A stretch of DNA of 64,000 bases, from NCBI GenBank assembly GCA_963827615.1, contig CAWHCA010000003.1, forward strand, positions 13,367 to 77,366. The letters run 5' to 3'. Origin of the DNA: an uncultured Gammaproteobacteria bacterium. Lineage in GTDB: Bacteria > Pseudomonadota > Gammaproteobacteria > Steroidobacterales > Steroidobacteraceae. Position 1 is the stretch's first letter. Each line of letters opens with the position of its first letter. The notes under the pieces were generated by a model. It had not been told where the DNA came from and did no database searches. It saw nothing but the letters and a program-made list of their open reading frames with translations. Both the position numbers and the translations under genes were made by a program. Below are positions 11,241-29,298 of the stretch, piece after piece.

Positions 11241-12076
11241 TGGCATTACAGTCTCAGCGCTCCATCGTCACCGCCAGCCTGCGCTGGCTGCGGCCAATCG
11301 CGCGCTGGCTGTTGAAGTCCGGCGTCACCTGGAAGGAATTCGCCGAGCTGTCGCGCGGCGTCTTCGTCAGCGTCGCGGCCGAGGAATTCGGCCTGCGAGG
11401 GCGCCCCACCAACGTGTCGCGCATCGCGCTGCTCACGGGCATGACTCGGCGTGAGGTGCGCCGCTATCGCGAATCCGGGGTCGCGACACCAGTCGACGAC
11501 GTGCGAGCGGAGGACGACCTCAATCACGCGAGCCGCGTGCTGGCGGGCTGGCACCTCGACGCCGAATTCATCGACGAGATCGGCAAGCCGCGTGCACTGG
11601 AGGCCAAGGGCGACGGCGCGACTTTCGAACAGCTCGTGCGCCGCTACGCGGGCGACATCCCGGTGACGGCACTGATCAAGGAACTCGTGCGTTCGAGCTC
11701 GATCGAGCGCACGACGGACGGCCGCTATCGAGCGCTCCGTCGCTTCTACATGCCGCGGGCGATGGACGGGCAGGCCGTCGAGCGCGCAGGCGCGGTGATC
11801 GCCGACCTTGCGACCACGGTCGAACACAACCTGACGCGTGATGCTGCCGAGCCGCCGCGTTTCGAAGGCCGCGCCCAGAACCGTCACGTCGATCCGCGCC
11901 AGCTGCCCGCCTTCCGCGCGTTCATGGAGCGCGAGGGCCAGGCATTCCTCGAGCGCTGCGACGAATGGCTGAGCGCGCATGAAGCACAACAAGTCGATGG
12001 GGCGCCGGTGGCGACCCTGCGGTTGGGCGTAGGGGTCTTTGCAATTCAGGAACGGATGGTCGGAGAAGAATCATGA
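11240..12076 (+). CDS. Hypothetical cytoplasmic protein, first gene of the lipoprotein operon (possibly DUF6502-type; family name from memory, unverified)
   Basis: ORF from the ATG at 11240 (MALQSQRSIVTASLRWLRPIARWLLKSGVTWKEFAELSRGVF...). Its stop overlaps the next start (ATGA at 12073-12076). Confidence 0.55.
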   Translation: MALQSQRSIVTASLRWLRPIARWLLKSGVTWKEFAELSRGVFVSVAAEEFGLRGRPTNVSRIALLTGMTRREVRRYRESGVATPVDDVRAEDDLNHASRVLAGWHLDAEFIDEIGKPRALEAKGDGATFEQLVRRYAGDIPVTALIKELVRSSSIERTTDGRYRALRRFYMPRAMDGQAVERAGAVIADLATTVEHNLTRDAAEPPRFEGRAQNRHVDPRQLPAFRAFMEREGQAFLERCDEWLSAHEAQQVDGAPVATLRLGVGVFAIQERMVGEES

Positions 12077-13512: not shown

Positions 13513-13589
13513 CCGGAGTTCCGGGGTAAAGACGGGCCTGCAATGACGGGTCCGATACCGATCAGTACCGAGCTGTGCAGAGGTGTGAG

Positions 13590-15626
13590 ATGAATCCAGT
13601 GCAGAACTTTTTAGGAATGACGGCAGTGGCCCTGCTGGTTGCCGGATGCGGTGGCGGGGGAGGCACGGCCGATGGCGGCGCGGCCTCGAACCCGCCGCCT
13701 GCGACCGGCTCGACCACGACCACGACGACGTTTGTCACCGGCGCGATCGCCGGCTTCGGCAGCGTCATCGTCAATGGCGTGCGTTACGACACGGACTCGG
13801 CGCAGGTCAGCATCGAGGACAAGCCGGCGACGGCGGGCGAGCTGAAGGTCGGTGAAGTCATTCACCTGACGGCAGAGGTCGATGCGCAGGGTGTCGCGCG
13901 CGCGAAGTCGATCCAGCAGGATCACCTGATCCAGGGCACCGTTCAGGCGCTGGACACGGTGGCGGGAACACTCACGATCGCCGGGCAGGTGGTCATCGTC
14001 GACAACGAGACCATGTTCGACGACTCGATCCCCACACGCTCGCTGGCCGGCATTGCGGTGGGCGACAGGATCGAGGTGCACGGCTTTGCGAGCGCCGGGG
14101 GCACGGCACGTGCGACTCGCATCGAGAAGGCAGGTGCGGGCGAGACCGAGGTCGAAGTGACCGGCGTGGTCAGCAACCTCGACACCGGCCTGAAGCGCTT
14201 CGACATCGGCACCCTCGTCGTCGACTACTCGGCGGCCACGCTCGAGGATTTCGGCTCGACGGGCCCTGCCGCCGGCAACCTTGTCGAGGTCAAGGGCACG
14301 TCGTTCCTGGCGGACGGCGCTTTGCGTGCCACGAAGGTGGAACGAGAGGGCCACAATTCTGACGGCCGCAGCGGCGACGACAGCGAAGTCGAGGGTCTCG
14401 TCACCCGGTTCGGTTCCGTGACGGACTTCGACGTCGCCGGCCAGAAGGTCATCACCAATTCCGCGACGATCTTCGTCAACGGCACTGCGACCGACCTGCA
14501 ACTCAACGTGAAGGTGGAAGTCGAAGGCAGGTTCGACTCGTCCAATGCGCTGGTTGCGGCCAAGGTCGCGTTCAAGCGGCAGTCGACGGCTCGCCTTGCG
14601 GCCATGGTCGAAAGTGTCGACGCGGCCGGCGGCAGTTTCCGCGCGCTGGGCGTGACTGTCGTGGTGTCCTCCACCACGCGCAAGGAGGACCACGAGAGCG
14701 ACGATCACTTCTTCAGCCTGGACGACCTCCGCGTCGGCGACTGGGTCGAAGTGGGCGGCTACGTCGATCCGGCCGGTACCGGCAAGCTGATCGCGACCCG
14801 GCTCGAGCGTGACGAACCGGAAGACGAAGTCGAACTGCGTGGCCCGGCGACCGACGTCGCAGCAACGAGCCTCAAGGTCCTGGGCGTCAGCGTCGAACTG
14901 CTGCCGGGCACCGAGTACGAGGACGAAGACACCCGAATCACCGCCAGCGAGTTCCTTGCGCGCGCGGTCGGCCAGACGGTCGAAGTCGATGGCAGCTGGA
15001 ACGGCACGTCGCTGCTCGCCGACAAGGCGGAGATCGAGCGTGAGGGCGGCGGTGTCGTCACACCTCCGGTCACGCCGCCGGTCACACCCCCGGTGACACC
15101 TCCGGTCACGCCGCCGGTGGGCGGCAACCAGCCGCCGGTTGCCAATGCGGGCACTCCGCGCAGCGTTACGACGGGCGCCACGGTCGCGCTCAATGGCACT
15201 GCCAGCACCGATCCGGAAGGCGCGGCACTCACTTATGCGTGGGTGCTGCAGGTTCCGGGCGGCAGCAAGGCGAGCCTGTCGAGCGCCACGAGCAGCCAGC
15301 CGAGTTTCGTAGCCGACGTCGCCGGGTCGTATACCGCGACGTTGACCGTGAGCGACGGTGCACTCACGTCGTCGGCCAGCGTTGCGATCACGGCGCAGGC
15401 GCCGACGCCGCCACCGCCGCCGTCACTCGACGGTGCGGCGCTCTATACGGCGAAGTGCCAGAGCTGCCACGGTGCGATCAAGCCGATCTTCAGCCGCAAC
15501 GCGCGTGACGCAGCGAGGATCCAGACTGCGATCGACAACAACAAGGGCGGCATGGGCTTCCTCTCGTCGCTGACCGCGGCCGAGGTGCAGGCCATTGCCG
15601 CGGCCGTCACGGCAGCGAATCCGTAA
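13590..15626 (+). CDS. Lipoprotein: DUF5666-like repeats + (TPPV)5 linker + PKD-like domain + C-terminal mono-haem cytochrome c domain
   Basis: The ATG at 13590 is preceded by GAGG, and the lipobox is LLVAGC. The PKD-like segment reads PVANAG...TVALNGTASTDPEG..LTYAW...GSYTATLTVSDG. The c-type haem motif CQSCH lies about 60 residues from the C-terminus. Confidence 0.7.
   Translation: MNPVQNFLGMTAVALLVAGCGGGGGTADGGAASNPPPATGSTTTTTTFVTGAIAGFGSVIVNGVRYDTDSAQVSIEDKPATAGELKVGEVIHLTAEVDAQGVARAKSIQQDHLIQGTVQALDTVAGTLTIAGQVVIVDNETMFDDSIPTRSLAGIAVGDRIEVHGFASAGGTARATRIEKAGAGETEVEVTGVVSNLDTGLKRFDIGTLVVDYSAATLEDFGSTGPAAGNLVEVKGTSFLADGALRATKVEREGHNSDGRSGDDSEVEGLVTRFGSVTDFDVAGQKVITNSATIFVNGTATDLQLNVKVEVEGRFDSSNALVAAKVAFKRQSTARLAAMVESVDAAGGSFRALGVTVVVSSTTRKEDHESDDHFFSLDDLRVGDWVEVGGYVDPAGTGKLIATRLERDEPEDEVELRGPATDVAATSLKVLGVSVELLPGTEYEDEDTRITASEFLARAVGQTVEVDGSWNGTSLLADKAEIEREGGGVVTPPVTPPVTPPVTPPVTPPVGGNQPPVANAGTPRSVTTGATVALNGTASTDPEGAALTYAWVLQVPGGSKASLSSATSSQPSFVADVAGSYTATLTVSDGALTSSASVAITAQAPTPPPPPSLDGAALYTAKCQSCHGAIKPIFSRNARDAARIQTAIDNNKGGMGFLSSLTAAEVQAIAAAVTAANP
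15060..15119 (+). repeat. Five tandem 12-nt units encoding (TPPV)5
   Basis: ACA CCT CCG GTC-type units were read directly. The synonymous third positions vary between units. Confidence 0.9.
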
Positions 15627-15705: not shown

Positions 15706-17270
15706 GTCTCGAAGCGCAGGTGACGCGTCGCGAGGTGACCGAGGGGGTTGACCGCGACGCCTGCGACGTCCGGCTTGGCGAGCAGCTTCGAGACGCGATG
15801 AAACACCGGGATGACCGGCGAGTCCGCGAGCAGCCACTGTTCGGCAAGGACCATGGATGACGCACGCTGCGCTGCGTCCCGCGCAAGCCGCGATTCGGCC
15901 AGCAGCGCGTCGTAGCGGGCGCTCTTGTATCCCGGAACGTTCTGCGCGTGGCCGGACTCGAACAGTGCGAGAAACGCCTCGGCGTCGATGAAGTCGGCGG
16001 ACCAGCCGAACCGTAGCAAATCGCAATCACCCGGATCCTCGCGCAGCGCGAGGTACGCCTTCCACTCGATCTCGACCAGCTCGACTTCGACACCGAGCGT
16101 GCGACGCCATTGATCGACAAGTGCGACCGCGGTTCGGTGGTGATTGGCACTCGCGTCCGAGCACAGTCGCAACCGATCAGGCGCGGCACCGCGTCCGCGT
16201 GCTTCGCGCCACAGCCTTCGCGCCTCGTCGATACGCTCAACCGCGGGAAGCGGAGTCCACGTGAACTGCGCCGGCGTGTAACCGGGTACGCCTGCGGGAA
16301 CCCAACCGTAGGCGGGTTGCTCTCCCGCGCCGGTCACTTGCCGGGTGATCTGCCCGCGATCGACTGCCATGGATAGCGCCACGCGCGCATCCCGGTCACG
16401 CATGCGCGCAAGATTGAACGCGTAGCCATACGTGCTCAGGTACGGCGCAATGTGCAGTTCATCGGCAAGGTTCTGCTGCAACCAGCTGACCTGCGTGTTC
16501 GGCACTTCGCTCGTAACGTCGAGCGCGCCCGAGCGGTAGAGGTTCAGCTCGGTGTTGAGGTCCTCGAGTGTCAGGTAGGTCACGCGCTCGACCGCCACCG
16601 CCTCCGCGGCGTGATAGTGGGGGTTGCGCTCGAGTTCGATCTTCTCGCCTGGACGACGCAGGAGTAGCCGGTAAGGGCCGTTGCCGATGAAGGATGCCTC
16701 AGCGCTGGCCGCGAATCGTTGCGGCGCGGCGACCGGCAGCGCCAGCACGGCAGGAAGGTAGGGCACAGCGCGCGCCATCTCGAGCACGACGGTCCGGGAA
16801 TCCGTCGCGTGGACGGAAGTGACGTCTTGCAGCAACGCGGAATAGGGTGCCTGCGAGTCCTTAACTCTTGCTGCATCCAGGCCAGCGACAAACTGCGCGG
16901 CGTTCAGCGGGGTGCCGTCGGACCAGCGCAGATTCTCACGCAACGTGAAGGTCCAGGTGCGGCCGTCGTCCGACACGCTCCATGTCTCCGCCGCTCCGGG
17001 GACGATGCGGCCGTCGGCAGCCTCCGTCGTCAGTCCTTCGAACAGTTCCTGTGACAGCGCCAGTGCCGGGTTGTCCTCGGCGAGGCGTGGGTCGAGAGTG
17101 GCGGGTTCGCCGCCCAAGGCGCGGGTGAGGGTACGGTGCGGGTCCGCAGTCACAGGCAGGTTTGCGTCCTGTGGGGATGGATGCCGATCCGATCCGCAAG
17201 CGGCGATCGCCAGCGTTACCAGTGCTACGACGCAGCGCAATAAGGCTGTCAACGTGTTTCCCGTCTGCAT
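15696..17270 (-). CDS. ABC transporter substrate-binding protein, family 5 (peptide/nickel type), lipoprotein
   Basis: I chose the ATG at 17270 (MQTGNTLTALLRCVVALVTLAIAAC lipobox). The body is OppA/DppA-like. No cognate permease or ATPase genes are adjacent. Confidence 0.8.
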   Translation of the reverse strand: MQTGNTLTALLRCVVALVTLAIAACGSDRHPSPQDANLPVTADPHRTLTRALGGEPATLDPRLAEDNPALALSQELFEGLTTEAADGRIVPGAAETWSVSDDGRTWTFTLRENLRWSDGTPLNAAQFVAGLDAARVKDSQAPYSALLQDVTSVHATDSRTVVLEMARAVPYLPAVLALPVAAPQRFAASAEASFIGNGPYRLLLRRPGEKIELERNPHYHAAEAVAVERVTYLTLEDLNTELNLYRSGALDVTSEVPNTQVSWLQQNLADELHIAPYLSTYGYAFNLARMRDRDARVALSMAVDRGQITRQVTGAGEQPAYGWVPAGVPGYTPAQFTWTPLPAVERIDEARRLWREARGRGAAPDRLRLCSDASANHHRTAVALVDQWRRTLGVEVELVEIEWKAYLALREDPGDCDLLRFGWSADFIDAEAFLALFESGHAQNVPGYKSARYDALLAESRLARDAAQRASSMVLAEQWLLADSPVIPVFHRVSKLLAKPDVAGVAVNPLGHLATRHLRFETKK

Positions 17271-17410
17271 GGATGCGAAGTCCGAGGCATATGGTCGTCG
17301 CAAATCAGGCGTATGACAAAAAGTGTGTCGGGTAAGGTCCGAACTGCGTTTTGACAGAACCCGGCAGGCTGGGTGACTATCCCCGCCGCTGTGCGTTTGG
17401 AGCGCGACGA

Positions 17411-19636
17411 ATGGATTCCGAGTTCAAGTACCGCGCTTTCATAAGTTACAGTCACAGCGACGAGTCCTGGGCCAAGTGGCTGCACAAGTCGCTCGAGACG
17501 TACTCGGTGCCGAAGCGCCTCGTCGGCAGACAGACCGAGTTTGGCCCCGTGCCTGCACGATTCGCGCCGGTGTTTCGTGACCGGGACGAACTTGCGACGG
17601 CGACCAACCTGGGCGAGACCCTGACGCGAGCACTGGAGCAGTCTGCGTTCCAGGTGGTGATCTGTTCGCCGGCCGCCGCGAAGTCACGTTGGGTGAACGA
17701 GGAAATCCTCGCATTCAAGCGCCTGGGCCGCGAGCACCGGATTTTTTGTCTGATCGTAGGCGGTGAGCCGGGCGCGTCCCTTGTGGAAGCCACCACGGAG
17801 CAGGAGTGTTTCCCGAACGCGCTCATCTATACGATGGGTGCGGACGGACAACTCACCTCGACGCGCGGCGAGCCGATCGCCGCCGACGCCCGGCCACAGA
17901 AGGACAGTAAGCAGGACGTCCGGCTGAAGCTGGTCGCCGGGATGCTCGGCGTCGGTCTCGACGAGTTGAAGCAGCGCGAGGCCCACCGGCGGCAGCGGCG
18001 CATGATGGCGCTGGTCACTGCGTCCGTCGTCGGTATGGCGATCACCTCGGGCCTTGCCGCCGCCGCCTGGATCGCCCGCAACCAGGCCGAGCGCGAGCGC
18101 GTCCGCGCGGAGACCGAAGCCGAAACCGCCCGGCAGACCACGAACTTTCTCGTCGGCCTGTTCGCCGTCTCCGACCCGAACGAGGCTCGCGGCAACTCCA
18201 TCACCGCGCGCGAGATCCTCGACAAGGGCTCGCAGCGCATCAAGTCGGAATTGGTCACGCAGCCGGCGATCCAAGCCACGCTGATGGAGACCATGGGGAC
18301 GGTGTACACGAGCCTGGCGCTTTACCCTCCGGCTGCGTCGCTGCTCGACAGCGCACTGCAGAAGCGTCTCGAACTCTATGGCGCGGACAGCCTCGAGGTG
18401 GCGCAATCGGCGGAGAAGCTCGGCGGGGTGCTGACGCTGACCGCGGAGTACGACAAAGCGGAGTTGATGTACCGCAAGGCGCTGGGCTTGCGACAGCAAC
18501 AGCTCGGACCCGAGCACGTCGACATCGCGCGCAGCCAGTACCTGCTTGCCGATCTTCTCTCTCGCAAGGGCGAGTACGATGCGGCCGAGCCGTTGTTTCG
18601 CGAGTCGCTGGCGATGCGGCGCAAGTTGCTCGGCGGCAACACCGTCGAGGTGGCCAAGAGCCTCGAAGGGCTGGCGATGAATCTCTATAACCAGGGCAAA
18701 TACGACGAGGCCCTGCCCGCGATGCGACTTGCGGTTGAGTTGCAGAGGGGACTGCACCATGCGCCGCACACCGACCTGGCCGAGGCGCTGAGCAATCTCG
18801 GCCTGGTGCTGAGCGACATGGGTGAGTACGGCGAGTCTGAAAAGCTGTATCGGGAGTCGTTGCAGATGAAACGCGTCCTGCTGGGTGACACGCACCCGGA
18901 GATCGCGCTGGGCCTCAACAACATCGCATACGCTTTGACCGACCAGAAGAAATACGACGAGGCGGCGTCGATGTACCGTCAGGCCATAGCCATGCAGCAC
19001 AAGCTGCTCGGCGACGACCACCCGGACATTGCGGCCGCGCTGAACAACCTGGCATTCGTGCTGCACGACAAGGGCGATGCCGAGGGTGCCCGCAGGATGA
19101 TGCAGCAATCGCTCGACATGTACCGACGCACGGTCGGGTCCGAGCATCCGTCGATTGCCCGCGGCATGGGCAACCAGGCGATGTGGCTGATGCAGGCGGG
19201 TGATTACAAGTCGGCCGAACCTCTGTTGCGCGAGGCGCTGCAGATGCGCAGAAAGCTGCTCGGCAATGAGCACACGGACGTCGCCGGCACGCTGACGCTG
19301 CTCGCCAGTCTGCTGGTCGAGACCGGGCGGTTCGAGGAGGCGCGGGCGGCCGCCGCGGAAGCCCGGGCGATTTGCCTGCCCGCCCTGGGGGCGGCCCACT
19401 GGCGGACGGCGGCCGCCACCAGCACCGAAGGCGCGGCGTTGGTCGGTTTGGGGCAAACCGCGCAGGGTGCCAAGTTGTTGATCGAGGGGTTGGCCGCGCT
19501 GCGCGCCGACACGGGGGCATTGCCCTTTTTCCTGGACAACGCGACCCGCTGGGCTGAGGAATACAGCCGCAAGCGGACCGGCGCGCAGGATGCGGTCAAG
19601 CAAACTGCCATGTTGCTAGGCAACAAGGACCGCTGA
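17411..19636 (+). CDS. TIR domain - single TM - TPR repeat protein
   Basis: ATG at 17411. The N-terminal TIR signature is YRAFISYSHSDESWAKWL...FRDRDEL...VVICSPAAAKSRWVNEEILAF. One hydrophobic helix follows (MMALVTASVVGMAITSGLAAAAWIA), then about 9 TPR_12-like repeats (...YDEA...A..L...LG..HP..A..LNNLA...). Confidence 0.85.
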   Translation: MDSEFKYRAFISYSHSDESWAKWLHKSLETYSVPKRLVGRQTEFGPVPARFAPVFRDRDELATATNLGETLTRALEQSAFQVVICSPAAAKSRWVNEEILAFKRLGREHRIFCLIVGGEPGASLVEATTEQECFPNALIYTMGADGQLTSTRGEPIAADARPQKDSKQDVRLKLVAGMLGVGLDELKQREAHRRQRRMMALVTASVVGMAITSGLAAAAWIARNQAERERVRAETEAETARQTTNFLVGLFAVSDPNEARGNSITAREILDKGSQRIKSELVTQPAIQATLMETMGTVYTSLALYPPAASLLDSALQKRLELYGADSLEVAQSAEKLGGVLTLTAEYDKAELMYRKALGLRQQQLGPEHVDIARSQYLLADLLSRKGEYDAAEPLFRESLAMRRKLLGGNTVEVAKSLEGLAMNLYNQGKYDEALPAMRLAVELQRGLHHAPHTDLAEALSNLGLVLSDMGEYGESEKLYRESLQMKRVLLGDTHPEIALGLNNIAYALTDQKKYDEAASMYRQAIAMQHKLLGDDHPDIAAALNNLAFVLHDKGDAEGARRMMQQSLDMYRRTVGSEHPSIARGMGNQAMWLMQAGDYKSAEPLLREALQMRRKLLGNEHTDVAGTLTLLASLLVETGRFEEARAAAAEARAICLPALGAAHWRTAAATSTEGAALVGLGQTAQGAKLLIEGLAALRADTGALPFFLDNATRWAEEYSRKRTGAQDAVKQTAMLLGNKDR

Positions 19637-19742
19637 GAAACCGTTTTGGGCCAGGCCTTTCGTCACAATCCGATCGCGACGCTCTGCCCTCCCGGTTGAC
19701 ATAATCGTCCGGCCTCGGCCGCGGCAGTGCAAGCGACTGAAT

Positions 19743-19758
19743 TGTGATACGTTTCACA
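19743..19758. promoter_or_regulatory. CRP/CLP-type binding site candidate TGTGA-N6-TCACA
   Basis: TGTGATACGTTTCACA is an exact match to both half-sites of the CRP consensus core. It lies about 145 nt upstream of the first lectin gene start. Confidence 0.4.
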
Positions 19759-19895
19759 CATTCAAGACGCTTGCGCTCGGTCTGGCCTTGAAGCGCCGCC
19801 TGCAAGTCGAGCCGGCCGAGCAATTCGACTCGCTTTAAGAATAAGAAAGACACCGCAAGGGTCCCTGGCCTTGCGCGCACGCAGGAGTGAACAAG

Positions 19896-21380
19896 GTGGG
19901 TAAGGGAATCAGTCTGTTTGCCGGTCTGACCGCATTGTTTGCCATGGGTTCGGCGGGAGCGGCTTGTCCCGGCACGCCGACGCAGGCAGATACCAATCCG
20001 GAAACCGGGCACTATTTTGAGGTCTACGCGGCCACGGGCATCACCTGGGACGATGCCAAGGCGTGCGCCGATGCCAGCACCAGCAACGACATTCCCGGGC
20101 ACCTTGCGACCATTACGTCGTCCAGCGAGGACGAATGGGTCGATAGTTTGAGAAACAGCTCAGGGCTCGGCCAGGTCTGGGTTGGCGGTTACCAGGTGCC
20201 GGGCTCGACGGAGCCGGGTGGCGGGTGGCGTTGGGAAAACAACGAGGGCCCCTTTTCAGGCGTGAACAACGACCCCGGTCTGCCTGGATACACGAACTGG
20301 GCCGCTGCCGAGCCGAACAATGACGGGGGCGTCGAGAGCCACCTGACGCTTGGTCGGTACGGCCTGGGCGGCGGCTGGAACGACGAAGGCAGTGCTCTCG
20401 GTTCAATCGGCGGCTTCATCGTCGAGTACGATGTGCCGCGCACCGCCGAGTGCACTGTCGGTGTCGATTGCCAGACTATCAACGGCCAGACGCTGCAGTT
20501 TCCGCCGGGATCGTTCCAGGCCGGCGACAAGGTCAAGTTCACGGCCTATGAGTTCACGGATCCGCGCGTCGTCGCCGGCAAGTGCACGACACGTGGGCCA
20601 CTGACATTGTTCACGGATCCCGCCTTCGGATCCAATGCGCAGCTGAAGATTCCGCCGTACCTGTGCGGTTCGCCCAGGTTTGTCGTCGTCAAGGTGGACT
20701 CGAGCGATCTCGACATACTGAAGGGGACCGTGCTGGTCGAGAACCAGACCACTGAGGTGGTCCTGCCGACCAACCTGTACAAGTGCTTTGACCCGATCAT
20801 TGGCAGCGCGCTAGAGGGTGTGGATTCGCGGTGGAAAAAGGATCCGCAGTACCAGGACGTGGTCGTGTGGCAGTCCACCAACCCGCTCGACATGCTCGAA
20901 AATATGACCACGACTCCGCTCGACTTCGTTGGCGCTGCGACCGAAGCCACGAATGGATGTGGCAGTACCGTGGCGAAGGTCCGCGGCGCGTCCTATTTCA
21001 TCGTCGGCATGCACATCGATTTCGGCCCGGGCTACGAGTTGTCGTCCAACTCGCTGGCGAACTACGGCAAATTCGTGAGCCTGACCCGGTACAAGCTGAC
21101 GCTACTGCGCAAGTCTATTGTGGCGGCGAGGTCGGCGGGATCACTCAGACCGGCCGTCTCCACGGCGATGGACGCATTGATCGCGCTCGCGATCTACCGG
21201 CTCGACCGGGGCAATCCCGCGGGCGCGTTGGTCCAGGTCAGGCAGTTCCTCTGGCTCGCCAACGCGGCGACATACACGCCAATAGCTGGCGCCAACTACA
21301 ACGGTGATCATGTCATGCGCGGCGAGAACATTGCGTTCATGCTGCGGGTCAAGGTCATACCCTACCCGGTCGCGCCTTGA
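19896..21380 (+). CDS. Secreted C-type lectin domain protein, paralogue 1 (CTLD + ~300-aa Cys-rich domain of unknown function)
   Basis: The GTG at 19896 lies 8 nt after AGGAG; the ORF-track start at 19887 overlaps the RBS. It has a signal peptide. CTLD landmarks are GHLATITSSSEDEWV, VWVGG, WRWENNEGPF, NWAAAEPNNDGG (EPN) and GGGWNDEG (WND). Confidence 0.8.
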   Translation: MGKGISLFAGLTALFAMGSAGAACPGTPTQADTNPETGHYFEVYAATGITWDDAKACADASTSNDIPGHLATITSSSEDEWVDSLRNSSGLGQVWVGGYQVPGSTEPGGGWRWENNEGPFSGVNNDPGLPGYTNWAAAEPNNDGGVESHLTLGRYGLGGGWNDEGSALGSIGGFIVEYDVPRTAECTVGVDCQTINGQTLQFPPGSFQAGDKVKFTAYEFTDPRVVAGKCTTRGPLTLFTDPAFGSNAQLKIPPYLCGSPRFVVVKVDSSDLDILKGTVLVENQTTEVVLPTNLYKCFDPIIGSALEGVDSRWKKDPQYQDVVVWQSTNPLDMLENMTTTPLDFVGAATEATNGCGSTVAKVRGASYFIVGMHIDFGPGYELSSNSLANYGKFVSLTRYKLTLLRKSIVAARSAGSLRPAVSTAMDALIALAIYRLDRGNPAGALVQVRQFLWLANAATYTPIAGANYNGDHVMRGENIAFMLRVKVIPYPVAP

Positions 21381-21453
21381 ATGAGCCACGGACCGGGCAT
21401 GCGGCTCGCCGCAGTCCACGGTCCCTGGCCTTGCACGCACGAAGGAGTGGAGA

Positions 21454-23007
21454 ATGAATATGGACAAGGGAATCGGTCTATTTGTCGGCTTGGCAGCGGT
21501 GTTTGCCATGGGGTCCGCGCAGGCCGCGTGCCCCGGAACTCAGGTGCTGGTGTATTCGGACATCAATGACGCCACCGGCCACGTTTTCGAGGTTTACAGG
21601 GCGAACGGGATTTCCTGGGCCGACGCGGCGGACTGCGCCGACAACATCACCACCACCGGCGCCACGGGGCACCTCGCAACCATCACGTCATCCAGCGAGA
21701 ACCAGTGGGTCATCGACTCCCTGTTGATCCCTTCGCTGACCACGTCGGTAGAAGTTCCCTCGCCGCTGACGCAAAGCCAGGTCTGGGTGGGCGGTGTGCA
21801 AGACGCGTCGGCGACGGGAATCGGCGATGGCTGGCGTTGGGTGAATAGCGAAGGGCCGTTTTCCGGCACGAACAACAATCCCGCGATGCCGGGCTTCACC
21901 AATTGGGCCGGCAGCGAGCCGAACGATGGTGACGGTTTCGAGAACGGGCAAGAGAATCATTTGACGGTCGGCCGGTACCCCGGGAATTACTATGTCTGGA
22001 ACGACGAAGGTGCCGCTCCGGGCTCGATTGGTGGATTCATCGTCGAATACGACGTGCCGCGTACGGCCCAGTGTACCGTCGGTGTTAATTGCGAAACCAT
22101 CGACGGTCAGACGCTGGTTTTTCCGACTGGATCGTACACGACCGGCGACACGATCAAGTTCACGGCCTATGAATTCAACGATCCGCGCGTCGTCGCCGGC
22201 AAGTGCACGACGCGGGCGCCGCTGACGTTGTTCATGGATACTGCCGCTTTCGGGTCCAATGCGCAGCTGAGAATCCCACCGTACCTTTGCGGTTCCCCCA
22301 AGTTTGTCGTCGTCGCGGTGGACTCAAGTCAGCTCGACATCCTCAAGGGCACCGTGTTCGTCGAAAACCAGACGACCGAGAAGGTGCTGCCCAGTAACCT
22401 TTACAAGTGTTTTGACCCGATCCTCGGCAGCCTGCTGACGGGGGATTCGCGTTACTCCCCGGATCCGCAGTACCAGGACGTGGTCGTGTGGCAATCCACG
22501 AATCCCACAGGCATGCTCGAAAACGCGACCACGGCGCCGCCCGACTTCGTTGGCGCAGCGACTGAAGCCACGAACGGTTGCGGCAGCACCGTCGCGAAGG
22601 TCCGGGGTGCTTCCTACTTCGTGGTCGGCATGCACATCGACTTCGGTACAGGTTTCGAATATGCGACAAACCCGTTGCAGAACTATCAGCAGTTCGTCGC
22701 GTTGACCCAGTACAAGCTCTCGCTGCTACAGAAGTCCGTGGCCAATGCGCGATCGGTCGGCTCGGTGAAGAATCCGGACGGGCAGGCCATGGCCTCGCAG
22801 GTGAAGAACGCGATCAGCAAGCTCAACGCGGGTGATCCCGCCGGCGCGCTAACGTCGATCAACCAGTTCATCAACAAGGTGAATTCGTCCACGTACTACT
22901 TTCCCACGAGCGTGACGTTCAACTACAACGGCGATCACCTGATGCGCGGCGAGAACATCAGGTTCATGCTGCGGGTCAAGGTGATCCCCTACAAGCCAGT
23001 GCCTTAA
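21454..23007 (+). CDS. Secreted C-type lectin domain protein, paralogue 2
   Basis: Same architecture as paralogue 1: GHLATITSSSENQWV, VWVGG, WRWVNSEGPF, NWAGSEPNDGDG (EPN), YVWNDEG (WND). The 5' leader is duplicated too (GGTCCCTGGCCTTGC.CGCACG.AGGAGTG before both genes). Confidence 0.8.
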   Translation: MNMDKGIGLFVGLAAVFAMGSAQAACPGTQVLVYSDINDATGHVFEVYRANGISWADAADCADNITTTGATGHLATITSSSENQWVIDSLLIPSLTTSVEVPSPLTQSQVWVGGVQDASATGIGDGWRWVNSEGPFSGTNNNPAMPGFTNWAGSEPNDGDGFENGQENHLTVGRYPGNYYVWNDEGAAPGSIGGFIVEYDVPRTAQCTVGVNCETIDGQTLVFPTGSYTTGDTIKFTAYEFNDPRVVAGKCTTRAPLTLFMDTAAFGSNAQLRIPPYLCGSPKFVVVAVDSSQLDILKGTVFVENQTTEKVLPSNLYKCFDPILGSLLTGDSRYSPDPQYQDVVVWQSTNPTGMLENATTAPPDFVGAATEATNGCGSTVAKVRGASYFVVGMHIDFGTGFEYATNPLQNYQQFVALTQYKLSLLQKSVANARSVGSVKNPDGQAMASQVKNAISKLNAGDPAGALTSINQFINKVNSSTYYFPTSVTFNYNGDHLMRGENIRFMLRVKVIPYKPVP

Positions 23008-23016
23008 GTAGGCGCC

Positions 23017-23052
23017 AGACAAAGCCCGTGACTCGCGGCACGGGCTTTGTCT
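23017..23052 (+). terminator. Hairpin terminator after lectin paralogue 2
   Basis: AGACAAAGCCCGTG-(8 nt)-CACGGGCTTTGTCT is a perfect 14-bp stem. Only a weak T-tract follows. Confidence 0.55.
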
Positions 23053-23104
23053 ATCTGAAGGTCCGGTGTGCTGGGGCGGCTAGCCCCGGCGTACCGGCGC
23101 AGAC

Positions 23105-24298
23105 GTGATCGGCGGCCGGCTCGACAAGCGACTGTACGGCGCCATGTTCCTGATGGCCACGAGCGCCATCGGCCCCGGCTTCATCACCCAGACGACTCAG
23201 TTCACCGCCCAACTCGGCGCGGCCTTCGCTTTTGCGATCCTGGTCTCGATCCTCATCGACGTCGCGCTGCAGTTGAACGTGTGGCGCGTGATCGGCGTGT
23301 CGGGATTGCGGGCGCAGGAACTCGGGAATAGCGTAGCGCCGGGCGTCGGGCATGTGTTCACGGTCTTCGTGGTGCTCGGTGGTTTCGTCTTCAACGTCGG
23401 CAATATCGCGGGCGCCGGGCTTGGTCTCGAGGCGCTGCTGGGACTCGAGCCGAAGTGGGGCGGGGCGGCTTCGGCTTTGCTGGCGATCGCGGTCTTTTTG
23501 TCGCGCCGGGCCGGAGTCACGATGGACCGGATCGTCGTCGTGCTCGGCTTCGTCATGATCGCGCTGACAGCGTACGTGGCCTTCGTCTCCCAGCCTCCGC
23601 TCGGCGCCGCGCTGCGTAACGCGGTGCTGCCCGAGCGAGTCGACTTCCTCGCGATCACGACGCTGGTCGGTGGCACGGTGGGCGGCTACATCACTTATGC
23701 CGGCGCGCATCGGCTGCTCGACGCCGGTGTGCACGGTCCTGACCGTGTGGCGGAGATTTCCCGGGCCTCAGTTATCGGCGTGCTGGTGACCGGCCTGATG
23801 CGTGTCCTGCTGTTTCTCGCCGTGCTCGGCGTGGTCGCGGCAGGCGTGCGGCTGGATCCGTCCAACCCAGCCGCCTCTGCCTTCGAGGCGGCCGCCGGCG
23901 GAGTGGGCAGGCGCGTGTTCGGCCTGATCCTGTGGGCTGCCGCAATCACCTCGGTCATCGGTGCTTCGTACACGTCGGTGTCGTTCCTTGTCGGCGCGTC
24001 GGCGCGGCTTGCGCGACGCCGGAGCATTCTCGTAGTGGCTTTCGTCGGCCTGTCGGCAACCGTGTACCTGATGGCGGGTGCGGCGCCTGTGCCACTGCTG
24101 GTGTTCGCGGGTGCCTTCAATGGCCTGATCCTGCCGATCGGCATCGCCGTCCTGCTGTGGGTGGCGATCCGCCGGCCCTATCTAATGGGCGGTTACGCCT
24201 ATCCCCGTCACCTTGCTGCGTTGGGTTTCGTGGCATGGCTGGTCACGATCTACCTTGGCTGGGAATCGCTCGACAGGCTGGCGACGCTGTTCATTTAA
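23105..24298 (+). CDS. Nramp-related membrane transporter (divergent; lacks the canonical DPGN motif)
   Basis: 397 aa with about 11 TM segments. The N-terminal segment MATSAIGPGFITQTTQF resembles Nramp-family TM1. Confidence 0.55.
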   Translation: MIGGRLDKRLYGAMFLMATSAIGPGFITQTTQFTAQLGAAFAFAILVSILIDVALQLNVWRVIGVSGLRAQELGNSVAPGVGHVFTVFVVLGGFVFNVGNIAGAGLGLEALLGLEPKWGGAASALLAIAVFLSRRAGVTMDRIVVVLGFVMIALTAYVAFVSQPPLGAALRNAVLPERVDFLAITTLVGGTVGGYITYAGAHRLLDAGVHGPDRVAEISRASVIGVLVTGLMRVLLFLAVLGVVAAGVRLDPSNPAASAFEAAAGGVGRRVFGLILWAAAITSVIGASYTSVSFLVGASARLARRRSILVVAFVGLSATVYLMAGAAPVPLLVFAGAFNGLILPIGIAVLLWVAIRRPYLMGGYAYPRHLAALGFVAWLVTIYLGWESLDRLATLFI

Positions 24299-24385
24299 CG
24301 GATACGGTGGGCGGCCCGCCTGCCGCCCGCCGCCGATCGCAGCAATCGACGCGCCCGGTGCGGTGGATGGGTATCATCCCCGCGC

Positions 24386-26188
24386 ATGGCGACCGCACCC
24401 GAGCACGCAGCGCCCGCTGAGACTCCCTTCACCGCCGGTCCGGACCGCCGGACGGGCGCGCGCAGCTACGCCGTTCCTTTCATCGTGGCCGTCACGGGCC
24501 ATCGCGACCTCGTCCCCGACGAGATTCCGATCATCCGGTCCCGCGTGCGCGACTGCCTGTTCAGCCTGCGCTACGAGTACCCCAGCCGCATCATCGTCGT
24601 GATGTCCTCGCTGGCCGACGGCGCGGACCGCCTCGTGGCGGAAGAGGCGTTGCAGCTCGGCATGCCGCTCAGCGTCGTCTTGCCGATGCCGCGGGTGATG
24701 TACGAGGAAGACTTCACGCCGGAGTCCCTCGAGCAGTTCGCGGAACTCTGCGACAAGGCCGCAGAGATCTTTGAACTGCCCCTGCTGCCGGGTGCGACGC
24801 CACGGTCCATCGCGGAAAGTGGGCCGAACCGCACCCGCCAGTATGCCCAGCTCGGCGTGTTCCTGAGCGCGCACTGCCACGTGCTGCTCGCGCTCTGGGA
24901 TGGCAAAGGCAGTGACCTTCTTGGCGGCACGGCGGCCACGATCCAGTTCCATCACCACGACGTGATGCCCGGCTACACGCCGCGCGTGACCTCGAGCAAG
25001 CTCAACCTGACCGAAGACGAGAGCGACCTCGTTTATCACATCGTCTGTTCGCGGGACCGGCCGGACGGCGAGCCTGCGCCCGGGTTGAAGCCCTTGGAGA
25101 CGTCATGGTTCACGACGGACGAGGAGAATCCGCGGACGGCCGAGATTTCCGCGCGGCACCGCAAGGTGTTCGAGTACACCAACGAGTTCAGCCGCGAAGC
25201 GCAGAACAACGCGGCCGCGATCGACAAGGAACGCTACTCGCTGTTGACCGGCGAGCAGGCAGCGACGTTGCCGGCCGGTCTCTGGGACATCAACCAGGCG
25301 TTCTGCGCGGCCGACTGGCTGGCCATCCACTACCAGAAGAAGGTCGTGAAGACGCTGCAGGGGGGCCACGTGGCAGCCTTCCTGACCGCCGTGGGCTACC
25401 TGACGTACACCGACCTGCTATCCACGCCGTTGATGATCGGCGGCATCATCTCGTTGATGCTTTTCGCCGTCGTGAACAACGCACTCGCGGTGCGCGGCAG
25501 CTGGCAACGCAAGTACCTCGACTATCGCACGCTGGCGGAAGGCCTGCGGGTCCAGTTCTACTGGGCTGCGGCCGGCGTCACCAGCGGCAGCGTTTCGAAG
25601 TACGCGCACGACAACTTCCTGCAGATGCAAGACACCGAGCTTGGCTGGATCCGCAACGTCATGCGCGTCGCCGGCATGGAGTGCGACGTGGCGCCAAACC
25701 TCGATCCGCATGGCGTGCAGTTCGCGGTGCAGGAGTGGATCGGCGACGACAAGTCCGGCCAGCTCGGTTATTACCGCAAGAAGTCCGCCCAGCGCATCGT
25801 CGAGCACGACTCCACGTTGCGCATCGGGCGGCTCGGGATCTGGACCACGATCATCGCGCTCACGACATTGCTGTTCGTTGGTTCGGCGCTATCGGACGAA
25901 GTGCGGACCCCGGTCGTCTACCTGATGGGTATCGTCATGCTGATGGTGGGCGTGCGGCAGGCGTACGCAAAGACCACGGCCGAGGCCGAACTGATCAAGC
26001 AGTACGAGTTCATGCATCGCATCTTCCGCAACGCGCGCAAGCGTATCGACGATGCCGACAACGACGGTGACAAGCGGCGTATCCTGAAGATCCTCGGGGA
26101 TGCCGCGCTGGAAGAACACGCGCAGTGGATCCTGATCCACCGCGAGCGGTCGATCGACGAGAAGGAGGGGATCAAGCTCGGCGGCTGA
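24386..26188 (+). CDS. SLOG-like (LOG/YpsA-type Rossmannoid) domain fused to two 2TM SLATT-like modules
   Basis: The N-terminal ~200 aa carry FIVAVTGHRDL, SSLADGADRLVAEEAL and a LOG-like glycine motif LLGGTAATIQF. Two hairpin TM pairs follow (about aa 335-380 and about aa 480-525). The second pair is preceded by GQLGYYRKKSAQRI, typical of SLATT/DUF4231-type modules. Confidence 0.6.
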   Translation: MATAPEHAAPAETPFTAGPDRRTGARSYAVPFIVAVTGHRDLVPDEIPIIRSRVRDCLFSLRYEYPSRIIVVMSSLADGADRLVAEEALQLGMPLSVVLPMPRVMYEEDFTPESLEQFAELCDKAAEIFELPLLPGATPRSIAESGPNRTRQYAQLGVFLSAHCHVLLALWDGKGSDLLGGTAATIQFHHHDVMPGYTPRVTSSKLNLTEDESDLVYHIVCSRDRPDGEPAPGLKPLETSWFTTDEENPRTAEISARHRKVFEYTNEFSREAQNNAAAIDKERYSLLTGEQAATLPAGLWDINQAFCAADWLAIHYQKKVVKTLQGGHVAAFLTAVGYLTYTDLLSTPLMIGGIISLMLFAVVNNALAVRGSWQRKYLDYRTLAEGLRVQFYWAAAGVTSGSVSKYAHDNFLQMQDTELGWIRNVMRVAGMECDVAPNLDPHGVQFAVQEWIGDDKSGQLGYYRKKSAQRIVEHDSTLRIGRLGIWTTIIALTTLLFVGSALSDEVRTPVVYLMGIVMLMVGVRQAYAKTTAEAELIKQYEFMHRIFRNARKRIDDADNDGDKRRILKILGDAALEEHAQWILIHRERSIDEKEGIKLGG

Positions 26189-27400
26189 TCAGTTCTTCTT
26201 CGGTGGCACCTTCGAATACTCGCCGCGCCCCTCGAGCACGGGATCCGTCGACAGGTTCCAGCCCAGGTTGCGCGCTTCGTTCGGGTCGACGGGTTCGCTC
26301 GAGATCCAGACGACGAGGCGCATGCCGTCGGTGATGTAGGGGTCGCCCGTGAGGTTGTAGCGCGGTTTTTCATGCGTGGCTTCGCCGACGCCGCGCACGA
26401 AGGCGAACCGGCTGACGGCGTCGTGGTGCAGCAGGCTGTGCAGCAGGTATTCGCGCGACTCGTCGATGACCGGGTCGATCACGTGCGTCGTCAGCGTGGG
26501 CGACTTCGTGGTCCCCTTGACGCCGATGTCGCGGCTGACCTGGCCGAACCAGACCGGACGGCCCTCGCTGCGGAAAGGGGCCAGCCACAGGCGCATGTGG
26601 TTGCGCTGGGCAATGGTCGCCCTGCCGCGCTGCAACGCGACGTCCTGCTTGCGGCCGAAGGCGTGCAGCGAGCTGACTGGAGCGGTCAGGAACGACTTTT
26701 CCGCAATTGCCGCGCCCACCATGCGCCGCACGCTGTCTGCGGTGATCGCCTCGGTGAAACTCCAGCCACTCGCGGCAAGTGCAGAGATGACTTCTTCGCC
26801 TGCGCCGACGATGACGACGTTGAGTGGATCGCCTTCGCCGTCACCGGCCGTGCTCGTCGTGCAGCACGGCAACTCCCGCAGTCGTGCGCGAAGCTCATCG
26901 GGCGCGAGATCCGGAAATTCGTTCACCTTCTCGTAGAGCGCCTTGAGCGACGATCGCTCGTAGTCGAAGCCCTCCGTGGGCAGCATCACGGCGAACCGCA
27001 TGCGGATGCCTCGCTGGTTGCCCGTCATGCGGATGTCGACGAAGCGGCCTCCACGCATGTGCGACGCATAGACGTAGCCTTCATTCGTGGACCTGGCCGC
27101 GGAGAAAAAGGGCAGGGCATGCTGGCGGAACCGGTCCGCGTGGGCGGCACGCTGGTCCTTCGGCACCTTCTTCAGCGTGACCAGCGCAACCTCGTCGGCC
27201 GAGTAGTAGTCGGGATCGATCGAGACCGGCAGCAACCAGTAATCGTGGTCACTGGTGTTTTCGATGCGCAGCCAGATCGGCTGGATGCCGGCTGCGGCCA
27301 GCGGCACGCCGAAGAATTTCGCTGCCTGTTCCTCGGTCGGGATCGCAAGATGGACGGTGACGCCGTCCTGCTGCAGTGTCCGCAGGCGTCCGAGATGCAA
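26189..27400 (-). CDS. LssY_C-domain protein (as called, from a TTG; the N-terminal signal peptide appears to be in another frame)
   Basis: The C-terminal half resembles the LssY C-terminal domain (GDPLNVVIVG...ALAASGW...RNHMRLW). A signal-peptide-like ORF start (ATG 27596, MTCWSWPRRASSATASVLAIAAVAL) joins this frame only after a 1-nt shift near 27515-27525. Confidence 0.6.
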   Translation of the reverse strand: MHLGRLRTLQQDGVTVHLAIPTEEQAAKFFGVPLAAAGIQPIWLRIENTSDHDYWLLPVSIDPDYYSADEVALVTLKKVPKDQRAAHADRFRQHALPFFSAARSTNEGYVYASHMRGGRFVDIRMTGNQRGIRMRFAVMLPTEGFDYERSSLKALYEKVNEFPDLAPDELRARLRELPCCTTSTAGDGEGDPLNVVIVGAGEEVISALAASGWSFTEAITADSVRRMVGAAIAEKSFLTAPVSSLHAFGRKQDVALQRGRATIAQRNHMRLWLAPFRSEGRPVWFGQVSRDIGVKGTTKSPTLTTHVIDPVIDESREYLLHSLLHHDAVSRFAFVRGVGEATHEKPRYNLTGDPYITDGMRLVVWISSEPVDPNEARNLGWNLSTDPVLEGRGEYSKVPPKKN

Positions 27401-27720
27401 GGGCAGGCCGGCGGTCTCGGCGTCGATCGCCGCGGCCGACTGGACGCCTAGGGGAGTCTGCGCCTCGGCGCTCGCTGCCGCGGCCGGAACCTCCGCAGCG
27501 GCGCCAGCCAGCGTCAGGCATCAGTGCGACAGCAGCTATCGCGAGCACGCTCGCGGTGGCGCTCGACGCGCGCCGTGGCCAGGACCAGCATGTCATGCGT
27601 TTGAATCCCCAGGGCGCTGGCGATCCTTGGGGCAGGGATACCGGCCCGTGCCTGTCGCTCGCGCATGAGTTGGACTGTAACTTATATTCCGGGGATCGCG
27701 GTCCGGACCGATCATCGACA

Positions 27721-29298
27721 ATGCGTATTCCATGCAGGTTACTGCTCGCAGCGGCCACGGCGCTGATGACAGGCTGCGCGTCATCCCCGCCAGCCGATGC
27801 GCCGGCAGGAACCAGCGCACCCAGGGCATTCGTCGAGGAAGCCAGTGCCACGTCGGTGCTGGGGCCGGATAGCGTATTCGTCGGCAGTCCGTACGAGGAA
27901 GTCGGTGCGTCGGGGCTCTTTCCGCCGCGCGGCCCCGCCGACTGCAGTCTCGCGGTGCTCGCCAATGGCGAGGATTCCCTCGCCGTGCGCCTGGACGTGC
28001 TGAAGGCGGCGCAGAAATCGATCCGCATCCAGGCGCTCGTGTTCAAGGGCGACGAATCCGGTCTGCGCGTCGCGGAGATCCTGAAGCAGAAGAAGGCCGC
28101 GGGTCTCGACGTACGAATCATCGTCGACGCATTCTCGAATCCGTGGTTGCAGACCCAGTGGATGTATTTCGACCTGAAGCAGCACGGCATCGAGGTCGAA
28201 GGGTACGAGGCCATGGCGTTGCAGTGGCTCAACGAGGTGCCCGTGCCGCACCTCACGCCGCACTACGACCCGCAGCAGCCGGACAAGCGGTTCCACGAGA
28301 AGATGTGGATCGTCGACGGGGAAACGGATGCCGCCGTGGCGGTGACCGGCGGCCTCAACATCGGCAACGAGTATTTTCGCGCCAACCCGGCCGATCCCGA
28401 CGCCACCTGGCGCGACCAGGACGTGGTCGTGCGCGGCGCGATCGTGCGCGACCTGGTCACCGCATTCGACCGCAATTTCGATTACTTCGTCGGCGTCAAG
28501 AAGAGCCGCGGCATCTTCAATACCAACCTGTACTGGGACGCGACTCGCCACTTGCTCGACAAGACCGGCAAGGTGCCGGTGAAGTTCACGACGAATCCCG
28601 ACGTGGCGGCGCACGTGGCCGGGATCGAGGCGCGCCGGCCGGCGCTCGCGTATTCGGGCGCGACTTGCCGGTTTTTCCAGAGCCGCCCCCGATTCAGGGA
28701 AACCTACATTCAGCAGGCCTACGTCAAGCTGATCGAGCGCGCGAGGTCCGAGGTACTGATCGCGAACGCGTACTTCGTGCCGACTGCAACGATCAAGCTC
28801 GCACTGCAGGACGCGGCGAGGCGCTGCGTGGCCGTGCGGCTGATCTCCAACAGCCCCGAGACCAACGATCTGCCTGAGATCAGCCTGGTGGGACGCGGGC
28901 ATTACAAGGACCTGCTGGCGGTGAACCAGGCGCCCGAGGTGGTCGCCTGCAAGAGCGCCGAGCCGGGGCTGCGAATCTGGGAATGGGTGGGGCAGGCGGC
29001 CACCGAGGCCGAGCGCCGGCAGGGCACGATGCACTCCAAGTACGCCGTGATCGACGGCCGCCGCAGCCTGGTCGGTTCCTACAATCTCGACCCGCGCAGC
29101 GAGAAACTGAACAGCGAGTCGGCGTTGGTTTTCGAACAGCCCGAGTTGTCAGGCCAGCTGCGCGATGCGTTCTTCAGCAACGACCTCAGTTACAGCCGCG
29201 AGGTGACGCCGGCGCAGGCGGCGGAATTCGAGGCACCCGAGGACGTAATCGAACGCTTCCGCAAGTCGATCGGGCACCTGTTCGAGCAGCACTTGTAA
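27721..29298 (+). CDS. Phospholipase D / cardiolipin-synthase-like lipoprotein with two HKD motifs
   Basis: I chose the ATG at 27721 (MRIPCRLLLAAATALMTGC lipobox). HKD motif 1 is FHEKMWIVDGE and HKD motif 2 is MHSKYAVIDGRRSLVGSYNLDPRS. Confidence 0.85.
   Translation: MRIPCRLLLAAATALMTGCASSPPADAPAGTSAPRAFVEEASATSVLGPDSVFVGSPYEEVGASGLFPPRGPADCSLAVLANGEDSLAVRLDVLKAAQKSIRIQALVFKGDESGLRVAEILKQKKAAGLDVRIIVDAFSNPWLQTQWMYFDLKQHGIEVEGYEAMALQWLNEVPVPHLTPHYDPQQPDKRFHEKMWIVDGETDAAVAVTGGLNIGNEYFRANPADPDATWRDQDVVVRGAIVRDLVTAFDRNFDYFVGVKKSRGIFNTNLYWDATRHLLDKTGKVPVKFTTNPDVAAHVAGIEARRPALAYSGATCRFFQSRPRFRETYIQQAYVKLIERARSEVLIANAYFVPTATIKLALQDAARRCVAVRLISNSPETNDLPEISLVGRGHYKDLLAVNQAPEVVACKSAEPGLRIWEWVGQAATEAERRQGTMHSKYAVIDGRRSLVGSYNLDPRSEKLNSESALVFEQPELSGQLRDAFFSNDLSYSREVTPAQAAEFEAPEDVIERFRKSIGHLFEQHL

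Follow-up and report, generated by a model that had tools for sequence, protein, structure and literature searches.

Within the 64,000-nucleotide stretch of DNA analysed here (the window; contig CAWHCA010000003.1, from an uncultured member of the Steroidobacteraceae), the plus-strand gene at 24386..26188 encodes a 600-residue membrane protein. In this protein, the target of the analysis, a predicted SLOG-fold domain precedes two SLATT (SMODS and SLOG-associating two-transmembrane effector) modules. At slightly better than even confidence, the target is read as the effector of a Thoeris-type TIR signalling system, that is, as a TIR-signal-gated membrane protein. Binding of a signal by its cytoplasmic nucleotide-sensing domain probably leads the protein to open or breach the inner membrane.

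The target is a real and constrained gene, as indicated by its GC content at third codon positions (GC3), the size of its family and the uniform length of the members. GC3 of the open reading frame (ORF) is 0.88, against a GC content of 0.66 for the window. A word-indexed search retrieved more than 3,200 homologues at E ≤ 1e-3, and an exhaustive search returned 6,596 clusters (50% identity), of which 948 reach E ≤ 1e-30. With few exceptions, the homologues in the exhaustive search measure 570-600 residues and align end to end. The AlphaFold2 model reaches a predicted local distance difference test score (pLDDT) of 84 and a predicted template-modelling score (pTM) of 0.86. An earlier reading of this DNA, hereafter the original prediction, had quoted the same ORF and three motifs, all of which are present in the sequence: VAVTGHRDL (residues 34-42), LLGGTAATIQF (178-188) and QLGYYRKKSA (459-468).

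Conservation was assessed in a deep comparison set of 82 representatives, 27-50% identical to the window protein. Even among these relatives, G38, H39, R40, G181 and T182 show little or no variation. The fully invariant positions of the deep alignment include H39, D81 and W171 in the SLOG domain and R381 and E385 right after the first membrane hairpin. They also include G571, E577 and W581 in a conserved C-terminal helix, predicted to be cytoplasmic, which the model and the alignment place at residues 560-587 (26063..26146, plus strand). Pfam-level matches in the set comprise DUF4231 (38/82), SLATT_1 (24/82), SLATT_3 (18/82) and YAcAr, which is a SLOG family (9/82). Sequence searches of the PDB with the target protein and with its profile gave nothing useful. 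Assignment to a phage gene family was rejected, since viral contigs yielded three weak relatives only. Certain Woeseiaceae variants of 824-844 residues carry a doubled N-domain in a SLOG-SLOG-SLATT-SLATT layout (L077 6-2480, P0108, P0116, P0118, P0121 and P0271-P0325).

The genes that accompany the target define its likely context. One genome per GTDB species was scanned, and at least 581 species contain a relative. The close-clade loci are the best 80 of these at least 581, mostly from metagenome-assembled genomes of Steroidobacteraceae, Woeseiaceae and Lysobacterales. Genes were called in all 80 loci and their products clustered, and partners were counted on the 48 loci flanked by 5 kb or more on each side. 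A TPR protein is encoded in 29 of these 48 loci, always on the strand of the target, and bears a TIR head in 26 of the 29. A secreted partner occurs in exactly the same 29 loci (29/29 co-occurrence), and the remaining 19 hold neither. The original prediction described a single-gene system. This description does not fit a target with which two further genes, for a TIR-TM-TPR (TM, transmembrane) protein or its DUF4062-nSTAND1-TM-TPR variant and for a secreted protein, lectin-like in the window, travel in 29 of 48 loci, nor does it fit the recurrence of TIR genes beside distant homologues. The secreted partner is either a lectin of ~490 residues, present twice in the window, or a protein of ~800 residues (Y800). 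Two gene orders exist, namely TIR-TPR, lectin, target and Y800, target, TIR-TPR; hence, the linkage outlasts rearrangement.

In the window, the TIR-TM-TPR gene lies at 17351..19636 on the plus strand, with a likely start at ATG 17411, and encodes a protein of ~740 residues. Pfam profiles identify TIR_2 (6e-12), ThsB_TIR (2.7e-7) and TPR_12 (6e-99). The TIR domain spans ~17438-17761, the single TM segment 18002-18076, and the array of TPR_12/TPR_10 repeats ~18400-19390. Both glutamates of the TIR motif S.WvnEE are invariant in 27 orthologues, and the second is the residue that we take to be the catalytic glutamate of TIR NADases. The protein contains one hydrophobic segment with positive charge on its N-side. 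This arrangement predicts an extracytoplasmic TPR array and a cytoplasmic TIR domain for the window clade. PADLOC returned generic weak TIR matches only for this partner, with no Thoeris model. In some Woeseiaceae, a DUF4062 domain plus an nSTAND1 NTPase (~1,200 residues) stands in place of the TIR head, and the TM-TPR part is homologous (L062, L066, L068, L075, L078 and L080; for example, L068 2706-6290). A TIR-like nature of the DUF4062 head is not claimed, as hhalign gave no signal between DUF4062 and the TIR head.

The secreted partner in the window, CTLD-X, is encoded by tandem paralogs on the plus strand. Copy A (19887..21380) comprises a signal peptide, a collectin-like carbohydrate-recognition domain (CRD) with EPN and WND motifs, a beta domain and a helical bundle, and it matches Pfam Lectin_C at 1e-3. 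Copy B (21454..23007) is 67% identical to it by sequence comparison. The AlphaFold2 model of the lectin (pLDDT 87) likewise displays the CRD, a beta-rich middle domain and a C-terminal helical bundle. In Foldseek searches, the N-terminal domain matches the C-type lectin-like domains of the mannose receptor at 1e-6 and superposes on collectin CL-K1/CL-11 with a root-mean-square deviation of 2.5 Å over 140 residues. The EPN and WND motifs, which form the Ca2+/sugar site, are invariant across 78 lectin homologues. The signal peptide, with an AxA cleavage site, is read from the sequence, and residues 1-23 have pLDDT below 50 in the model. The lectin family is small (233 matches), and C-type lectins with a genuine EPN/WND site may, to our knowledge, be unusual among bacteria. 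In some members the C-terminal bundle matches Pfam FIMAH. An hhalign comparison of the lectin C-terminus with Y800 (P=2.5e-4, probability 43%) is suggestive of a relationship between the two. An apparent 1,461-residue fusion of secreted partner and target in L044 was rejected as an out-of-frame ORF artefact.

Distant relatives in other phyla share 30-45% identity with the target. Those first located on contigs, in seven loci, are 30-34% identical and come from Acidobacteriota and Bacteroidota. A TIR gene is directly adjacent to the target homologue in three of the seven and a TPR-CHAT gene is nearby in one; three have nothing of the kind. In P0338, a TIR_2 gene lies 30 nt downstream, and DUF4062-NACHT-TPR is encoded at a distance of 4 kb. 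The P0344 locus, which belongs to a conjugative element, carries two TIRs, one of them encoded by a divergent ThsB_TIR gene, and P0345 has a TIR-DUF4190 gene 8 nt upstream, together with a second SLOG-SLATT paralog and a gene with a RyR domain. In L089 (4807-9716), a small RyR-domain gene stands with a TIR-DUF4190 gene between two SLOG-SLATT-SLATT paralogs, and a RyR-domain gene was also observed near the P0338 locus (L084/L085).

A metagenome scan seeded on the distant clade added 80 loci; together with six of the earlier distant loci, the target ORF is present in 86. The commonest neighbour clusters are TIR, in 18 of the 86 loci and mostly 4-340 nt away, followed by DUF4062-nSTAND1 in 7. On the 37 loci with at least 1.5 kb on both sides, one or the other occurs in 10. 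The Pfam-confirmed TIR domains of these partners are joined to a protein kinase, to NB-ARC/NACHT plus TPR, to an FGE-sulfatase domain, which has a C-type-lectin fold, or to nothing (fusions in L126 7759-9060, L153 7849-9213 and L139 5943-8822). The L139 partner has a layout like that of plant TNL proteins. Two WD40-repeat proteins (L169 1092-4154 and L094 1337-5956) were flagged by our own TIR profile, one of them weakly (E=4e-4), and no TIR appears among the Pfam rows shown for either. A constant effector beside variable TIR/STAND sensors is the pattern of NLR-like conflict systems (PMC7159879, PMC10907252).

These associations suggest the following sequence of events. The lectin and an extracytoplasmic TPR array would sense a cue from the envelope or periplasm, possibly a glycan recognised at the EPN/WND site of the lectin. 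Sensing would activate the cytoplasmic TIR domain, which would convert NAD+ into an ADP-ribose-derived messenger, and this messenger would be bound by the SLOG domain of the target. The tandem SLATT modules would then rearrange or oligomerise and the inner membrane would leak, with depolarisation, growth arrest or death as the outcome. An envelope or periplasmic trigger is probable because the TPR array is predicted to be extracytoplasmic and the lectin is exported to the same side. The chain from TIR messenger to SLOG and SLATT is inferred from published Thoeris work and from predictions of the Aravind laboratory. The ThsA SLOG domain binds TIR-made 3'cADPR (cADPR, cyclic ADP-ribose), and ThsH, a SLATT effector, is responsive to cADPR (bioRxiv 10.64898/2025.12.03.692087). 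In addition, SLATT has been predicted to act as a membrane effector regulated by ADP-ribose (ADPr) derivatives, and a YpsA-like SLOG clade to sense cADPr (PMC9503650).

The most serious alternative, possible but clearly in the minority, is a stand-alone housekeeping channel gated by nucleotides. The SLOG domain would sense an endogenous metabolite such as NAD+, ADP-ribose (ADPR) or another nucleotide and adjust ion flux or membrane potential as TRPM2 does, and the TIR and lectin genes would be add-ons in some lineages. A channel of this type would suit the strong conservation of length and sequence across whole families and the appearance of TRPM2/4 among the structural matches. It would also suit several observations that weigh against a TIR-gated effector. 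No TIR or STAND gene lies near the target in 19 of the 48 close loci and in 27 of the 37 well-flanked distant ones; for this reason, the target protein may also act by itself or rely on a partner gene at another locus. The window represents core chromosome rather than a defence island, and the gene is apparently inherited vertically across Steroidobacteraceae and Woeseiaceae, which is atypical for phage-defence cassettes.

Other counts against a TIR-gated effector concern domain assignment and topology. The window protein stays below all curated Pfam and NCBIfam cut-offs (YAcAr E=0.078, SLATT_3 E=0.054), PADLOC models give no match for it, and the ThsA SLOG structure is not in the top 50 structural matches of its N-domain by Foldseek. 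The periplasmic placement of the TPR array depends on a single hydropathy-predicted helix. Against the stand-alone channel, TIR is by far the commonest neighbour in two independent clades although TIR genes are rare, and this linkage outlasts both changes of gene order and swaps of the head domain. Copies that appear as orphans may, moreover, have their partner elsewhere in the genome.

A bolder extension of the TIR-gated scheme, unlikely as a whole and offered as speculation, is that the window cluster forms an outside-in pathway resembling innate immunity rather than a classic cytoplasmic phage sensor. A secreted collectin-type lectin with its EPN/WND sugar site and an extracytoplasmic TPR array would detect a glycan or envelope cue and report to a single-pass TIR receptor, following the logic of Toll-like receptors. 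The product of the TIR domain would in turn gate a SLOG-controlled, four-helix SLATT conductance, following the logic of TRPM2. Vertical inheritance would have kept such a pathway across entire orders of Gammaproteobacteria from soil and sediment.

The nucleotide-sensing role assigned to the target depends on its N-terminal two-fifths, which belong to the SLOG superfamily according to the structural model. Residues 32-242 alternate between strands and helices in the AlphaFold2 model, with pLDDT above 90 at 30-190. Foldseek matches the N-domain at probability 1.0 to 8zva (ShosA), 3uqz/5mll/3maj (DprA), 2iz7 and 1rcu, with modest E-values (6e-3 to 0.14). The molybdenum cofactor carrier and the LOG-family protein TM1055 are included at this probability, and TRPM2 and TRPM4 are also among the matches. 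No Pfam family covers the N-domain of the target family. The YAcAr profile scores 13 bits on the window protein, against a cut-off of 28 (E=0.078), and matches nine of the 82 relatives (best E 1.2e-6); L077 scores 7.8e-5. Together, the structural and YAcAr matches agree with the SLOG-like N-domain put forward in the original prediction. The domain is annotated as a predicted cytoplasmic nucleotide-ligand sensor at residues ~28-250 (24467..25135, plus strand). In its loops TGHRD (G38, H39, R40), AEGAD (G79, D81) and GGT (G181, T182), these residues are either invariant or reach 90% conservation or more.

The same domain could be an enzyme, a membrane-tethered nucleotide or nucleoside N-glycosidase or a hydrolase of ADPr derivatives that makes or destroys the signal, which we consider improbable. 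Some SLOG clades, such as LOG, are catalytic, and the Aravind laboratory has proposed enzymatic roles for viral SLOGs (PMC9503650). Furthermore, the invariant H39, R40 and D81 could serve catalysis. The LOG catalytic motif PGGxGTxxE, however, is not present. The window protein reads LLGGTAATIQF and the family consensus GGTxQVVRF, with no glutamate at the motif position. The glycine motif that had been called LOG-type is thus found in the sequence, but it does not make the protein a LOG enzyme, and the N-domain is read as a ligand sensor because this glutamate is missing. Profile matches point to the YpsA-related YAcAr clade and not to LOG, and fusion to two SLATT modules is a sensor-effector pattern. 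Unlike soluble LOG enzymes in metabolic contexts, the N-domain is joined to four TM helices and has TIR, STAND or lectin genes as neighbours. Metabolic or cytokinin-type surroundings would have counted against the original prediction by its own terms; the homologue neighbourhoods are not of that type. A membrane-anchored DprA-like DNA-binding protein, for example in DNA uptake or processing, is very improbable: DprA structures rank with the top structural matches and one of the 82 relatives matches the DprA-family profile (Pfam DNA_processg_A, E 0.0024), but the similarity is at superfamily level (16-18% identity, E 0.01-0.3), competence genes are absent nearby, and the TIR/STAND neighbours indicate nucleotide signalling.

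The proposed output of the TIR-gated effector resides in the C-terminal membrane part. Hydropathy and the AlphaFold2 model agree on two separate two-helix hairpins, as the original prediction had held. Their helices fall at residues 298-341, 344-371 and 373-396 in the first module and 458-501, 504-531 and 533-556 in the second. Module 1 (residues 298-396; 25277..25573, plus strand), defined from hydropathy, model and profiles, consists of a cytoplasmic helix, a TM hairpin (~323-341, 345-366) and then a conserved helix (RKYLDYRTLAEGLRVQFYW). Module 2 (residues 458-556; 25757..26053, plus strand), defined from hydropathy, model and SLATT_1, consists of the QLGYY helix, a TM hairpin (~483-501, 505-528) and a further helix. 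All soluble parts of the target are predicted from the charge distribution to face the cytoplasm.

For profile comparison, the membrane part was split into two halves, each of which was scanned in 40 family members. The first hairpin matches DUF4231 in 23 (best 1.5e-6) and SLATT_3 in 21, and the second matches SLATT_1 in 22 (best 5e-7). On the window protein, NCBIfam SLATT_3 aligns to residues 305-387 at a sub-threshold E of 0.054. The two hairpins align with each other in register by hhalign, at a weak score (P=6e-4, probability 28%). Family-level profiles thus support both hairpins as SLATT modules of different subfamilies. The presence of two SLATT-type modules had been anticipated; the DUF4231 type had been assigned to the second hairpin, whereas the match falls on the first. 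Nor is a double SLATT unusual, as had been supposed, since the tandem layout, though it carries no annotation, is common and found in thousands of proteins.

Downstream, the target converges on a minus-strand gene with an LssY_C domain (26189..27400; Pfam LssY_C 2e-45), an unrelated neighbour. The target TGA at 26186-26188 directly abuts the TCA at 26189-26191 that marks the LssY_C stop, which gives the junction TGATCA at 26186..26191 (ggcggcTGATCAgttc). The zero spacing emphasised in the original prediction is therefore real, but relatives do not conserve it. The junction TGATCA recurs in L001, spacers of 11 nt and 58 nt separate the two stops in L002 and L004, respectively, and LssY_C is absent from four close relatives (L003, L007, L016 and L079). 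The L002 spacer (TGATCAGCTGAGGATCA; 9800-9820) resembles a small duplication of the TGATCA junction. A terminator and promoter scan of 17000-27600 gave nothing significant, with 5 terminator-like sites against 7.3 expected from shuffles. One minus-strand hairpin with a 10-bp stem was seen at 26121-26144, in the 3' coding end of the target and 45 nt beyond the LssY_C stop; it has a poor T-tract, is not above chance and overlaps codons of the conserved WILIH motif. The abutting stops are a local, non-conserved accident, and neither the junction nor LssY_C has a role in the system.

Other neighbours were likewise set aside. A PLD/cardiolipin-synthase-like gene with two HKD motifs and weak matches to DISARM DrmC (27376-29298) accompanies LssY_C only in the closest relatives. 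Both genes were rejected as functional partners because they are present in the nearest relatives only and deleted in several. The Nramp-family transporter gene between the lectin genes and the target (23105..24298, plus strand; Pfam Nramp 8e-20) occupies this position in the nearest relatives only and is elsewhere or absent in others. It was rejected as a lineage-specific insert, probably outside the system. Further upstream lie two adjacent lipoprotein-like genes built of DUF5666 repeats (12073-15626), whose synteny with the cluster extends to several relatives; the second also encodes a PKD domain and, at its C-terminus, a cytochrome-c domain (CBB3-type).

Bacterial immunity is known or predicted to employ nucleotide signals made by TIR, SLOG sensors and SLATT effectors, and the target family joins all three in one unannotated architecture. 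The family is very large, with thousands of proteins in several phyla, and through it the gating of a SLATT membrane module by a SLOG domain could be tested directly. If the predicted topology is true, transmembrane TIR signalling in the window cluster would start from a glycan sensor outside the cytoplasm, with a C-type lectin of animal type, an arrangement that would be rare among bacteria. The cluster would then be relevant to how Toll-like and lectin-based innate immunity arose. The domain logic as such has already been predicted, SLATT taking its very name from SLOG, and Thoeris types that combine TIR with SLOG or TIR with SLATT are experimentally known. In the literature, the family with SLOG, SLATT_3-like and SLATT_1-like parts and its TIR-TPR/lectin module were not found described; Burroughs et al. 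2015 may hold an earlier description.

Among known systems, type I Thoeris, which combines the TIR protein ThsB with the SIR2-SLOG protein ThsA, offers a close parallel. In both cases a TIR gene adjoins an effector that bears a SLOG domain, and in ThsA it is this domain that senses the ADPR derivative made by TIR (bioRxiv 10.64898/2025.12.03.692087). The catalytic glutamate of TIR is also conserved in the window partner. The output differs, since ThsA acts through a SIR2 NADase and the window effector through two SLATT membrane modules. Moreover, ThsB is small and cytosolic, whereas the window TIR is fused to TM-TPR, and the window cluster has a secreted lectin as its third component. The window locus also lies in core chromosome and gives PADLOC no Thoeris match beyond generic TIR. 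Type VII Thoeris pairs TIR with the cADPR-responsive ThsH and shares the combination of TIR and a SLATT effector, with a predicted membrane breach upon ligand binding (bioRxiv 10.64898/2025.12.03.692087). However, the ligand pockets of ThsH are described as lying between SLATT protomers, whereas the window protein has a separate SLOG domain before its SLATT_3-like and SLATT_1-like modules. The SLOG-SLATT and TIR-SLATT associations predicted by Burroughs, Aravind and co-workers similarly couple a nucleotide-sensing SLOG domain to a 2TM SLATT pore-former, and TIR-SLATT neighbourhoods have been noted (PMC9503650, PMC7159879).

Wider comparisons extend to receptors and channels. TRPM2 and TRPM4 resemble the target in joining a cytoplasmic SLOG-fold domain (N-terminal MHR1/2 in TRPM) to a membrane conductance, which in TRPM2 is gated by ADPR. 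These proteins form 6-TM tetrameric channels, in contrast to the 4 TM helices in two SLATT hairpins, and the membrane parts are not homologous, so the likeness is one of analogy and not of membership. STAND/NLR-type systems combine TIR heads with TPR, WD40 or C-type-lectin sensors (PMC7159879, PMC10907252), as the partners of the target family combine TIR or DUF4062-nSTAND1 heads with TPR, NB-ARC and FGE-sulfatase modules. The window clade departs from them in that its repeat array is predicted to be extracytoplasmic and its lectin is a separate secreted protein. Finally, the window partner is analogous to Toll-like receptors in combining a repeat ectodomain, as predicted, with one TM helix and a cytoplasmic TIR, although its TIR stands at the N-terminus and its repeats are of another type.

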